From positions 3,308 through 67,307 of the forward strand of contig PSLO01000009.1 of NCBI GenBank assembly GCA_040289665.1: a stretch of 64,000 bases of DNA, given 5' to 3'. Origin of the DNA: Leptolyngbya sp. ERB_1_1 (lineage in GTDB: Bacteria > Cyanobacteriota > Cyanobacteriia > Leptolyngbyales > Leptolyngbyaceae). The notes below the pieces were generated by a model that was not told the origin of the DNA, ran no database searches, and worked only from the letters and a program-made list of their open reading frames with translations. The position numbers and the translations under genes were made by a program. Shown piece by piece: positions 32,158 through 51,924 of the stretch (positions are counted from its first letter, which is position 1; each line of letters begins with the position of its first letter).

Positions 32158-32171
32158 AGTACAATTGTTCT
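32158..32171 (+). promoter_or_regulatory. Cyanobacterial LexA box upstream of the lexA paralogue
   Basis: AGTAC-AAT-TGTTCT matches the cyanobacterial consensus RGTAC-NNN-DGTWCB exactly and ends 8 nt before the ATG. Confidence 0.75.
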
Positions 32172-32179
32172 AAATCGTT

Positions 32180-32812
32180 ATGACTGAGCTATCGCCCCCC
32201 AAACAAAAGCTTTTAGACTGGCTCGAAGATTATATCGATCGATATCATTCTGTGCCGTCCTACGGTGAGATGGCAGAAGCTTTAGGCTACAAATCCAAGG
32301 ACACGATTCGATTTCATCTCACGGATCTGAGAAATGCGGGGTATGTCGCTTGGAAAGAAGGAGCCGTGAAATCGTTAGTGATTTGTAAACCTCGATCGCG
32401 CAATATCCCGATTCTGGGCGTGATTGCAGCGGGGGGACTAGTGGAAACGTTTGCTGATTCTGATGTGGATGAGTATGTTGATGTTTCAACTCTGCCTCAT
32501 TTTGTTGGAAAACGGCGGCATCAAATGAGCCAGTATTTTGCGCTGCGAGTACGAGGGGATAGCATGATTGGGGCTGCGATCGCGGACGGTGATATTGTGA
32601 TTTTGCGAAAAGAATCACAGCCAAACACGATTAAAAACGGCGAAATTGTTGCGGCACGATTTGAAACTCAAACGACATTGAAGCATTTGTTTTGGAGTGG
32701 CGATCAGATTATCTTGCAGCCTGCAAATCCGAGCTATCCGGTGATTGAGAGACAGGCAGAAGAAGTCGCGATCGAAGGTGTATTCGTTGGGTTGGTGCGG
32801 GGGTTGGTTTGA
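32180..32812 (+). CDS. lexA: LexA-family repressor, divergent paralogue (intact Ala-Gly, Ser, Lys; atypical recognition helix)
   Basis: Winged helix (PSYGEMAEALGYKSKDTIRFHLTDL), PILGVIAAGG cleavage loop, GDSM, TLK. Confidence 0.8.
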   Translation: MTELSPPKQKLLDWLEDYIDRYHSVPSYGEMAEALGYKSKDTIRFHLTDLRNAGYVAWKEGAVKSLVICKPRSRNIPILGVIAAGGLVETFADSDVDEYVDVSTLPHFVGKRRHQMSQYFALRVRGDSMIGAAIADGDIVILRKESQPNTIKNGEIVAARFETQTTLKHLFWSGDQIILQPANPSYPVIERQAEEVAIEGVFVGLVRGLV

Positions 32813-32901: not shown

Positions 32902-33798
32902 ATGTCTTTCAGTTTTTTGGATTTGCTCTGGATATTCTTCCTTTTTTCTTCGCTGCAACCGCTTTGGCAACGCAGACAAACCGAGATGCGGCGCTACAAC
33001 ACTCTAAAAAACATTGAACGTAAGCGAAATAGCCGCGTGATTCTGCTGATACATCGTCAAGAGTCGATTAGTTTATTGGGCATTCCGCTTTCTCGCTACA
33101 TCACGCTCGAAGACTCTGAACAAATCCTCCGCGCGATTCGCTTCACCCCGCCGGATGTGCCGATCGATCTGATTTTGCACACTCCGGGTGGACTCGTACT
33201 CGCAACCGAACAAATCGCCCGCGCTTTAATTCGCCATCCTGCAAAAGTAACGGTCTATGTTCCGCACTACGCAATGAGTGGTGGCACGATGCTGGCATTA
33301 GCAGCAGATGAAATTGTGATGGATGCGAATGCGGTGTTAGGTCCAGTCGATCCGCAGTTAGGTAACTTCCCCGCAGCGAGTGTTTTGAAAGTTGTAGAAG
33401 ATAAACCAATCGGTGATATTGACGATCAGACTTTGATCATGGCGGACTTGTCGCGCAAAGCGATCGCCCAAGTTCAGCGCTTTGTCCGAACACTACTGAA
33501 CGATACGGTTCCGAAGCCGAAGATTGCACCTGAGAAAGTTGAAGCGATCATTGATGCGCTCACCACTGGAAGAGTTACCCACGATTATCCGATTACTGTC
33601 GAGGAAGCTTCAGAGCTAGGGCTACCGATCACCGTGGGACTCGATCGAGCAATCTATGATCTAATGGAATTGTATCCGCAACCTCAAGGCGGTCGTCCTT
33701 CAGTGCAATATATCCCGCTGCCGTATGAGCGTCGTCCTTCACTGCCAGAGCCGAAAGGCAGACCGTTGCAAGAAGCAGCGCGACCGCAGATGGATTAA
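32902..33798 (+). CDS. SDH-family ClpP-fold serine protease
   Basis: LIHRQE, DLILHTPGG, YAMSGGT (Ser), LGPVDPQ, THDYPI (His). Confidence 0.85.
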   Translation: MSFSFLDLLWIFFLFSSLQPLWQRRQTEMRRYNTLKNIERKRNSRVILLIHRQESISLLGIPLSRYITLEDSEQILRAIRFTPPDVPIDLILHTPGGLVLATEQIARALIRHPAKVTVYVPHYAMSGGTMLALAADEIVMDANAVLGPVDPQLGNFPAASVLKVVEDKPIGDIDDQTLIMADLSRKAIAQVQRFVRTLLNDTVPKPKIAPEKVEAIIDALTTGRVTHDYPITVEEASELGLPITVGLDRAIYDLMELYPQPQGGRPSVQYIPLPYERRPSLPEPKGRPLQEAARPQMD

Positions 33799-50209: not shown

Positions 50210-51124
50210 TTAACACGCTTGAGCAACCAGAGTCCGATGACGCGGAGAGTTACAAGTTAGAGTCGGTTGAGTAAAGCCTGCTTCCACGATCGCACGCTCC
50301 AAATCAAACGTAAAGTACTGATCTAGATAAGGTTCCGTACTTTTGAGCAGCGTCAGAATATACGGCGGCATCTTGGCATGAACTTCAGAACGCGGATTCA
50401 TATCCATAATGGCAAGATGACCCCCCGGACGCAGCAATCTTCGTGCTTCTTGCAGAATCGTGATCGCAGCATCCTGCGGCAACTCATGAAACAATAAGCA
50501 AGCCGAAACCAAATCATACGAAGCAGAAGGTAAACCGGTCGCTTCCGCCGCTGCGTGTCGCCAATTGATATTTTCACGACTGCCCGTTCGATACTCTGCA
50601 ACGGCTAAGAAATGCGGTGAAAGATCCACACCCGTCACCGTTGAATCTGGGAAAGTTTCTTGCAGCGCAACGGTACTCATTCCCACACTGCACCCGAAAT
50701 CTACAATCGCTTTCGGTGCAGTTGAAATTTCGGATTCTAAGACATCGTGATAACTTTGCCGCAATCGTCGATCGCCATCTTTTCCGGCATCTTTCCAAAT
50801 CCGAGCATGAACCGCATAAGCTGCCACTTCAACTTCAGTTGCAGGCTCCCAGGCTAAATTTCCCGCTTCATATGCATGGAATGGGCGCAGATAATATTCG
50901 GGATATTCCAAATCGGGATTGTTCACTTTTTCAAACTCTGCTGACCAATCTCGCGCCTGCAAATCAGCCACAATTTCTGTCCAAGGAACGCCGATCAATT
51001 CTGCGCGTTTGATCATCATGTTGCGAGCGCGAACCCTTGCCAAATTAAACACAGGCGGAATTGATAGAATACCGCTGACGATGCGGGAGGTCAGTCTAGG
51101 CTTGGTTTCGCGAGTCGCTGTCAT
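50210..51124 (-). CDS. Class I SAM-dependent methyltransferase
   Basis: IVDFGCSVG motif I, GVDLSP, YDLVSACLLFHELP, LRPGG. Confidence 0.88.
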   Translation of the reverse strand: MTATRETKPRLTSRIVSGILSIPPVFNLARVRARNMMIKRAELIGVPWTEIVADLQARDWSAEFEKVNNPDLEYPEYYLRPFHAYEAGNLAWEPATEVEVAAYAVHARIWKDAGKDGDRRLRQSYHDVLESEISTAPKAIVDFGCSVGMSTVALQETFPDSTVTGVDLSPHFLAVAEYRTGSRENINWRHAAAEATGLPSASYDLVSACLLFHELPQDAAITILQEARRLLRPGGHLAIMDMNPRSEVHAKMPPYILTLLKSTEPYLDQYFTFDLERAIVEAGFTQPTLTCNSPRHRTLVAQAC

Positions 51125-51196: not shown

Positions 51197-51266
51197 GATA
51201 CAAATGTTCTGAGAAAGATAAACAAATTTACTAGACGAGCGTGCAAATTTGTGATACAAGTGTTCT
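51197..51266 (+). promoter_or_regulatory. Two variant LexA boxes upstream of lexA
   Basis: GATAC-AAA-TGTTCT (51197-51210) and GATAC-AAG-TGTTCT (51253-51266), each one mismatch from RGTAC-NNN-DGTWCB. Confidence 0.65.
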
Positions 51267-51303
51267 AAAATCCTTTAGTTATTTGTGATCCTGGCAGGCG
51301 TTT

Positions 51304-51924
51304 ATGGAACCTCTTACCGAAGCCCAACAACAACTCTACGATTGGCTGGTTGAATACATCCGTGACCACCAACACGCTCCTTCGATTCGGCAAATGATGA
51401 CCGCGATGAATCTGAAGTCTCCGGCTCCTGTTCAAAGCCGCTTGGAGCATCTCCGCAATAAGGGCTATATCGGCTGGACAGAGGGACAAGCCCGCACGAT
51501 TCGGATTCTCAATCCGTTGCCGCAAGGAGTGCCGATTCGAGGCGCGATCGCGGCAACGAGTTTAGTTGAGACTTTCCCAGATGTGGAAGTCGAATACCTT
51601 GACTTGTCGAATTTGCTGTTGAAGCCGAATCATTTTGCTTTGAAAGTACGCGGTCACAGCATGATCGATGCGCTAATTGATGATGGCGATATTGTGATTT
51701 TGCAGCCTGTGAACGATGCGAGAGCGATTAAGAATGACACGATCGTTGCTGCCCACCATCAAGGCAAAGCGACACTGAAATACTTTGAGCGCAAAGGAAG
51801 TAAGGTAATTCTCAAACCTGGCAACCCGAATCGCGATTTGTATCCGATCACCGAAGTTCCTGCCTCAGAAGTTGAGATTCAAGGGGTTTTGGTTGGGGTT
51901 TGGCGCGGCTACGGCAAGATCTAA
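51304..51924 (+). CDS. lexA: LexA repressor with cyanobacterial-type DNA-binding domain; cleavage site reads Ala-Thr
   Basis: MEPLTEAQQQLYDWL...PSIRQMM..MNLKSPAPVQSRLEHLR...ARTIRIL, then GAIAATS, GHSM, TLK. Confidence 0.92.
   Translation: MEPLTEAQQQLYDWLVEYIRDHQHAPSIRQMMTAMNLKSPAPVQSRLEHLRNKGYIGWTEGQARTIRILNPLPQGVPIRGAIAATSLVETFPDVEVEYLDLSNLLLKPNHFALKVRGHSMIDALIDDGDIVILQPVNDARAIKNDTIVAAHHQGKATLKYFERKGSKVILKPGNPNRDLYPITEVPASEVEIQGVLVGVWRGYGKI

Follow-up and report, generated by a model that had tools for sequence, protein, structure and literature searches.

The window (the whole 64-kb stretch of DNA that was analysed) carries two lexA genes. One of them is the primary cyanobacterial orthologue and is preceded by two LexA-type boxes, which lie in an intergenic region between this gene and a divergent methyltransferase gene (Table 1). 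No other LexA genes are present in the 4.63 Mb, 99.6%-complete assembly. The product of the primary gene matches the LexA DNA-binding domain (PF01726, 87.5 bits, residues 1-65) and the S24 peptidase/dimerisation domain (PF00717, 71.1 bits) in profile searches, and scores 184.6 bits against the LexA equivalog TIGR00498, for which the cut-off is 110.95. It can be aligned over its full length with solved LexA structures, and the LexA tree places it inside the clade of single-copy cyanobacterial LexAs, whose recognition helix it carries. An earlier note on this DNA had called the protein a canonical-type LexA, and the profiles and the tree agree that it is an orthologous primary LexA. The start at position 51197 given there is that of the first box, and the gene proper begins at 51304.

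Table 1. Features of the two lexA loci and of related boxes. Positions are those of the window unless a contig is named.
Feature	Position	Strand	Remarks
Divergent SAM-dependent methyltransferase gene	50210..51124	-	shares its intergenic region with both lexA boxes
Distal LexA-type box, GATACAAATGTTCT	51197..51210	+	conserved in genera g1, g3, g10, g19 and g21; 73 nt from the divergent methyltransferase start codon
Proximal LexA-type box, GATACAAGTGTTCT	51253..51266	+	37 nt between its end and the lexA ATG; adjoins a -10-like hexamer, TAAAAT
lexA, primary cyanobacterial orthologue	51304..51924	+	206 aa; family profiles, structure alignment, tree
Recognition helix region S39-L50, SPAPVQSRLEHL	51418..51453	+	same as in Ala-Gly LexAs
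Ala84-Thr85-Ser86 (GCA ACG AGT)	51553..51561	+	position of the scissile Ala-Gly(-Gly); codons and alignment
Ser119 (AGC), catalytic nucleophile	51658..51660	+	motif G-H-S-M; aligns to E. coli S119
Lys155	51766..51768	+	counterpart of E. coli Glu152; the catalytic Lys follows four residues later
Lys159 (AAA), catalytic general base	51778..51780	+	motif TLK; aligns to E. coli K156
Perfect primary-type LexA box, AGTACAATTGTTCT	32158..32171	+	ends 8 nt before the second lexA ATG
Second lexA (AAGG, GDSM, TLK)	32180..32812	+	different recognition helix, SKDTIRFHLTDL; profile match and comparison
AGTAC-N4-GTAC[TG] boxes outside the window	C171:1734, C108:8218, C20:5963, C205:20096, C128:12844, C175:1445		overlap target promoters

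When the protein is aligned with E. coli LexA (1jhf, which carries G85D) by HMMER, its Ala84-Thr85 coincides with E. coli A84-G85. The codons at this position are GCG for Ala83 (51550-52), GCA for Ala84 (51553-55), ACG for Thr85 (51556-58) and AGT for Ser86 (51559-61), confirming the A-A-T-S reading made previously, and Ala84 is followed by Thr-Ser-Leu-Val. The usual scissile dipeptide of LexA, Ala-Gly or Cys-Gly, was not found anywhere in the 206 residues. The Ser-Lys dyad that characterises LexA (TIGR00498; MEROPS S24) is present, and the alignment to E. coli LexA bears out the earlier statement that the catalytic Ser (GHSM) and Lys (TLK) are intact. The change from Gly to Thr does require two base changes (GGN to ACN), and the associated view that a simple error is unlikely is strengthened by the occurrence of Ala-Thr in dozens of separate assemblies and isolates. 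A sequencing or assembly error, or a gene in decay, is hardly credible here: the same residues recur in dozens of independent assemblies, the reading frame is intact, and the score against the family model is high.

The nearest public proteins, with 96-98% identity, carry the names Leptolyngbya or FACHB cyanobacteria. Ala-Thr is present in 79-80 of the 120 closest public relatives (IAATS in 69, VAATS in 1 and IAATG in 10), the remainder having AAG-x, and all 120 keep G-x-S-M and T-L-K. A survey of the order, which covered LexA-family genes above the family score cut-off and seven weaker ones from 76 genomes, located Thr85 in the primary LexA of 44 genomes. Ala-Thr-Ser occurs in 11 genera, with the Leptolyngbya boryana group, Myxacorys, Phormidesmis and Alkalinema as named holders, and Ala-Thr-Gly in two, with Leptothermofonsia as named holder; the other genera have Ala-Gly. 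Named holders of Ala-Gly are Stenomitos, Kovacikia, Elainellaceae, Chroococcidiopsidaceae, Coleofasciculaceae, Chamaesiphon, Synechococcus, Prochlorococcus and Chloroflexota. All outgroups sampled are Ala-Gly, as are 68 of about 90 full-length representatives of LexA relatives at 50% identity.

In the LexA tree, the Ala-Thr-Ser proteins form one clade (39 rows, SH-aLRT 94) with an internal branch length of 3.24 substitutions per site, and Ala84-Thr85-Ser86 is fixed in 39/39 members. Across the 44 genomes with Thr85, its codon is ACG in 19, ACC in 15, ACA in 7 and ACT in 3; in the same genomes Ser119 is encoded by AGC or AGT and Lys159 by AAA or AAG, the amino acids remaining constant. This synonymous codon turnover around fixed residues indicates that both Thr85 and the dyad are under purifying selection. 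Seven positions are fixed differently in Ala-Thr-Ser and Ala-Gly primaries. Among them are G85T and Q155K, each present in 39/39 of the former and 0/28 of the latter; position 155 is Lys in all Ala-Thr-Ser proteins and Gln in all Ala-Gly and Ala-Thr-Gly primaries. Ser86 is likewise found throughout the clade (39/39), but also in 11/28 Ala-Gly primaries. A general relaxation of the C-terminal domain was considered and rejected, since mean column entropy is similar in the two groups (0.63 versus 0.57). The free LexA tree requires three changes at the P1' position; a tree with a single origin of Thr85 passes the AU test (p = 0.31), and because one origin is thus left standing, convergence is not claimed. 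Judged from these comparisons, Thr85-Ser86 is an old, clade-wide trait that appears to be maintained by selection. A 2020 publication stated that a survey of the distribution of Ala-Gly in cyanobacteria was under way (PMC7567884). No account of an Ala-Thr LexA was found in the literature searched, going by which the variant is apparently new.

The two boxes upstream of the primary gene have the form GATACA-N2-TGTTCT and lie 56 bp apart, centre to centre, in agreement with the earlier description of matching variant boxes. GATACAAATGTTCT and GATACAAGTGTTCT are the sole exact matches within the window, and GATACNNNTGTTC occurs 13 times across the 4.63 Mb genome; three of these sites are intergenic, and two of the three are the lexA boxes. 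In an alignment of ten promoters with a mean identity of 61%, both boxes stand out as invariant islands; their proposed role as operators is supported by this conservation by descent across genera, and the likely reading is that lexA is autoregulated through the boxes in its own promoter. The divergent methyltransferase neighbour is conserved in g1, g3, g19 and g21, and a promoter-like site is present on the minus strand at 51182-51155, on the methyltransferase side.

The box of the primary lexA lies 37-57 nt ahead of the ATG in the majority of genera in the order, and a few genera have none or a farther one. The box has the form GGTAC-N3-TGTTCT in Ala-Gly-Gly and Ala-Thr-Gly genera, GGTACA-N2-TGTATC in Ala-Gly-Ser genera, and GATACA-A-R-TGTTCT in most Ala-Thr-Ser genera. 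Exceptions among the last are Myxacorys, which has AATAC and a second, distal box that reads GATACAAATGTCCT, and g23 and one g22 genome, in which GGTAC is kept; the remaining two genomes of g22 yielded no lexA box. Ala-Thr and Ala-Gly primaries share one recognition helix, SPAP[VI]QSRLxHL, all the way from Prochlorococcus to Leptolyngbya. With the helix unchanged, GATAC would be a copy of the normal operator weakened in cis, and not the mark of a new specificity. A changed DNA specificity of the Ala-Thr LexA was therefore rejected, and the suggestion that the variant boxes constitute a separate specificity does not hold, given that Ala-Gly primaries have the same helix.

The second LexA is 44% identical to the Ala-Thr LexA and has A-A-G-G at the scissile position, as had been reported for the paralogue at 32180. 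Each of the 11 genomes of the genus encodes it, and its type is limited to g1, g3, g8 and one g21 genome. The box ahead of it was present in six of the seven same-genus genomes that could be checked with the automatically chosen start codon. A primary-type box ahead of the paralogue suggests that the relation between the two genes is hierarchical rather than parallel. Because only 8 nt separate this box from the ATG, a leader carrying a ribosome-binding site would not fit; the second lexA may be transcribed without a leader, or its true start may be elsewhere. A gene for an SDH-type ClpP-like serine proteinase (32902-33798; PF01972, 387 bits) begins 90 nt after the second lexA, and given the common strand and the short gap, the two genes may form an operon.

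RRTACA-N2-TGTTC has four sites in the window genome, and the three intergenic ones are all at the two lexA genes. For AGTAC-N4-GTAC, 6/10 sites are intergenic, compared to 14% intergenic sequence in this genome, and the six promoters belong to dnaN, to the genes for a DUF2721 membrane protein, an ALP_N-type actin-like protein and a DUF1257 protein, and to two unknowns. In other genera, boxes recur at the targets of DUF2721, actin-like and C128 type. A second LexA-family match is absent from 13/44 of the Thr85 genomes. Six further Ala-Thr-Ser genomes were inspected, of which four had no second match and two had weak extra S24-type matches only. Across these six, 16/22 fetched AGTAC-N4-GTWCT boxes are intergenic, and boxes precede the orthologues of the DUF2721, actin-like and C128-type genes, as well as ssb and sepF. 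Genome-wide counts of AGTACNNNNGTWCT were not above those of a reversed-pattern control, and the enrichment is in promoter location only. Since AGTAC boxes are located in promoters of Ala-Thr-Ser genomes with a single LexA, the primary LexA is also the likely binder of the paralogue's box, and the Ala-Thr-Ser LexA would be the most economical candidate for binding the AGTAC boxes in general.

No LexA box was found in the upstream region of recA in the window genome. Across the recA upstream regions at loci L249-L288, LexA-like boxes precede recA in 5/20 Ala-Thr-Ser genomes, all of them in g9, g11 and g22, and none were found at recA in 17 Ala-Gly genomes, in 3 Ala-Thr-Gly genomes or in the window's own genus. 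The boxes in g9 read AGTAT[AG]TTTGTTCT and lie about 250 nt upstream, and those in g11 and g22 read AGTTCYTTTGTACT. As recA boxes occur only in some Ala-Thr-Ser genera, the cleavage-site change is not tied to a loss of recA control, and a coincidence of the two was rejected. In Alkalinema, Myxacorys and Phormidesmis genomes, AGTACA-N2-TGTTCT also adjoins unrelated LexA-like genes of AAGY type. At two loci (G002:C32, 36678-40189; G003:C7, 81000-87202), an AAGY-type gene lies within a few kb of a second, diverged recA copy that is 61-67% identical to the main recA, and at both the box is beside the LexA-like gene. This combination looks like a mobile or prophage-borne recA/repressor pair.

The reading preferred here is that a Leptolyngbya-group cyanobacterium has inherited this protein vertically as its primary LexA and that self-cleavage of the protein is slowed or conditional, such that the switch would be retuned rather than simply broken; we put the probability of this at roughly 45%. 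The Ala-Thr LexA would still recognise the ordinary cyanobacterial LexA box and would repress its own promoter via a pair of conserved operators, each weakened by one mismatch relative to the normal one. It most likely also occupies the perfect box ahead of the second lexA, as well as the small set of AGTAC-N4-GTAC promoters that includes dnaN and the DUF2721, actin-like and DUF1257 genes. Strict purifying selection acts on Ser119 and Lys159, and this, together with the Gln to Lys change coupled to Ala-Thr-Ser, leads us to infer continued use of the protease. Cutting of the Ala84-Thr85 bond may persist in a slowed or differently gated form, e.g., pH-dependent as in Anabaena LexA, and would no longer act as a fast RecA-triggered switch. 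The dyad does decay in related lineages, as is evident from the loss of Ser in Synechocystis LexA (PMC3091678) and in the fused or diverged relatives P0121, P0122, P0125, P0136 and P0150, whereas Ser119 is retained in every standalone Ala-Thr LexA seen, none of which has the Synechocystis-type loss. The residue of E. coli LexA that corresponds to Lys155, Glu152, is one of those mutated to stabilise the cleavable form (bioRxiv 10.1101/2023.10.30.564768).

It is quite possible, however, that Thr85-Ser86 blocks self-cleavage altogether and that the protein is a stable repressor. Its level would then be set by negative autoregulation at the two weakened operators and its activity modulated otherwise, for instance by post-translational modification or abundance, with Ser and Lys kept for stability or for cleavage of another protein in trans. 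Mo et al. are said to have reported in 2014 that the P1' position favours a flexible Gly. A P1' Gly is near-universal among LexA relatives, and in the window LexA both Gly85 and Gly86 are replaced. Furthermore, AATS modules without the dyad exist: the metagenomic fusions P0121 and P0122 have AATS and have lost both Ser and Lys, so that such a module can work without catalysis. The missing box at recA of the window genome points the same way. Published work adds that E. coli G85D and P. aeruginosa G91D are not cleaved (PMC11787620), that Anabaena LexA is uncut at physiological pH even with activated RecA and is not cleaved in vivo under SOS-inducing conditions, and that Synechocystis LexA is regulated without cleavage (PMC7567884). 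In Anabaena LexA, residues 86-GLI-88 are essential for cleavage according to Kumar et al. 2015, as cited in PMC13416735. The earlier note had taken it as established that loss of Ala-Gly blocks cleavage; this is true of the two Asp mutants, but its extension to Ala-Thr is an extrapolation, and the strict conservation of Ser and Lys speaks for continued use of the protease. Ser119 and Lys159 are invariant in 120/120 of the closest public relatives and over 3.24 substitutions per site, while lineages presumed to be non-cleaving lose them. Many single-base changes could inactivate the protein, and yet it is Thr that is fixed, and the Gln to Lys change near the catalytic Lys goes strictly with the Ala-Thr-Ser site. 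The S119A and K156A forms of E. coli LexA fold and bind normally, and thus no structural need for the dyad is known.

Two other explanations were weighed against slowed or conditional cleavage. The earlier note had proposed a division of labour with the paralogue at 32180; taken as a parallel arrangement, this would have the Ala-Thr LexA act on GATAC only and leave the damage response, via AGTAC, to the cleavable paralogue. In its favour, the paralogue retains AAGG, GDSM and TLK and is found in 11/11 genomes of the genus, and in the window genome GATAC-type boxes are confined to the Ala-Thr lexA and the paralogue has an AGTAC box. But 13/44 Thr85 genomes have no second LexA, for which reason a division of labour cannot explain the trait, and the paralogue type is confined to four genera (g1, g3, g8 and one genome of g21). 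AGTAC boxes also stand at orthologous promoters where the Ala-Thr-Ser LexA is the sole LexA, and AGTACA-N2-TGTTCT occurs near the unrelated AAGY-type genes. Moreover, the primary helix is that of LexAs with AGTAC/GGTAC-N3-TGTTCT operators, from which the paralogue helix differs. The proposal is not a general explanation, and it must be considered decidedly improbable. It is also unlikely that Thr85, instead of being a defect, adds a new functional group to the scissile bond, either as part of a phosphorylatable Thr-Ser pair or through the chemistry of its hydroxyl. In the first version, a Ser/Thr kinase may gate self-cleavage or hinge movement via Thr-Ser. In the second, a natural Ala-Thr bond may be the substrate of the dyad, or Ala84-Thr85 may undergo an N-to-O acyl shift, for which the proposed likeness is to GPS, SEA and Nup98 autoproteolysis. 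If Thr85 were such a group, the protein would be the first S24 member working naturally with a non-Gly P1', and a family of Ala-His paralogues would be the second case.

These Ala-His proteins form a third LexA paralogue family in the Leptolyngbyales, with Ala-His-Ser (also Ala-Arg-Ser and Ser-Ala-His-Ser) at the scissile position and with GDSM and TLK intact. Members were found at loci L085, L091, L095, L099, L105, L112 and L117, among others, and include proteins P0124, P0143, P0153 and P0173. The family is a second natural group with a non-Gly P1' and makes up 7 of the roughly 90 full-length representatives at 50% identity. LexA modules are also fused behind other domains in the metagenome proteins P0121, P0122, P0125, P0126 and P0129. 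One type of fusion has two CBS domains ahead of LexA (P0121), with AATS and with Ser and Lys both changed to Ala, another combines a caspase, an nSTAND1 NTPase and LexA and has lost the dyad, and in further types TPR or TIR is joined to two LexA DNA-binding domains. None of the 76 genomes of the order contains the CBS-LexA fusion, which indicates a side lineage and not a paralogue there.

An Ala-Gly (or Cys-Gly) bond is regarded as a hallmark of self-cleaving proteins of the LexA, UmuD and lambda-CI type, and mutants at the P1' Gly serve as standard 'uncleavable' controls. In the large natural clade described here, Thr has taken the place of this Gly, with the entire catalytic apparatus still held under selection. 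One option is that the S24 active site is more tolerant than believed, which would bear on work on LexA inhibitors and SOS tuning; the other is that a master repressor has been made non-cleaving by a route unlike that of Synechocystis. In addition, the apparent hierarchy, with the box of the primary LexA before a second, cleavable LexA, suggests a two-layer circuit. Leptolyngbya boryana can be cultivated and transformed, and since the clade includes it, LexA switching in cyanobacteria is directly testable.

Among known systems, the LexA of Synechocystis sp. PCC 6803 (Sll1626) is similar in being a primary cyanobacterial orthologue in which the scissile dipeptide is no longer Ala-Gly. It is a global non-SOS regulator that works without cleavage (PMC3091678, PMC7567884), and the earlier remark that some cyanobacterial LexAs are non-SOS regulators is therefore supported by published work. 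However, in Synechocystis the P1 Ala is changed to Gly (giving Gly-Gly) and the catalytic Ser to Asp, whereas in the window LexA the P1 Ala is kept and the P1' Gly is changed to Thr. Unlike Synechocystis LexA, the window protein keeps both Ser and Lys and has a conserved, canonical-type predicted autoregulatory box. The LexA of Anabaena/Nostoc sp. PCC 7120 resembles it in primary group and operator family (box RGTACNNNDGTWCB); the helix of the primary group is common to all members sampled, the Anabaena sequence itself being outside the sample. Its cleavage is described as pH-dependent and RecA-independent, in the form in which this is cited in PMC7567884 and PMC13416735. It differs in having Ala84-Gly85 followed by 86-GLI-88, where the window LexA has Ala-Thr-Ser-Leu-Val, and the window LexA has GATAC instead of AGTAC in its own boxes.

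The Ind- proteins E. coli G85D and P. aeruginosa G91D are substituted at the same P1' position as the window LexA. They are non-cleavable laboratory mutants to Asp (PMC11787620), whereas the Thr described here is natural, fixed in a clade, and accompanied by Ser86 and Lys155. Bacteria with two LexAs offer a further comparison, as the window genome likewise encodes two LexAs with different helices, but its ancestral copy is without Ala-Gly. In Pseudomonas putida and Xanthomonas, LexA1 and LexA2 are encoded by two genes and have different DNA-binding helices, and both have Ala-Gly. The second copy in the window genome differs further from these in that it is confined to few genera and stands under the box type of the first copy.
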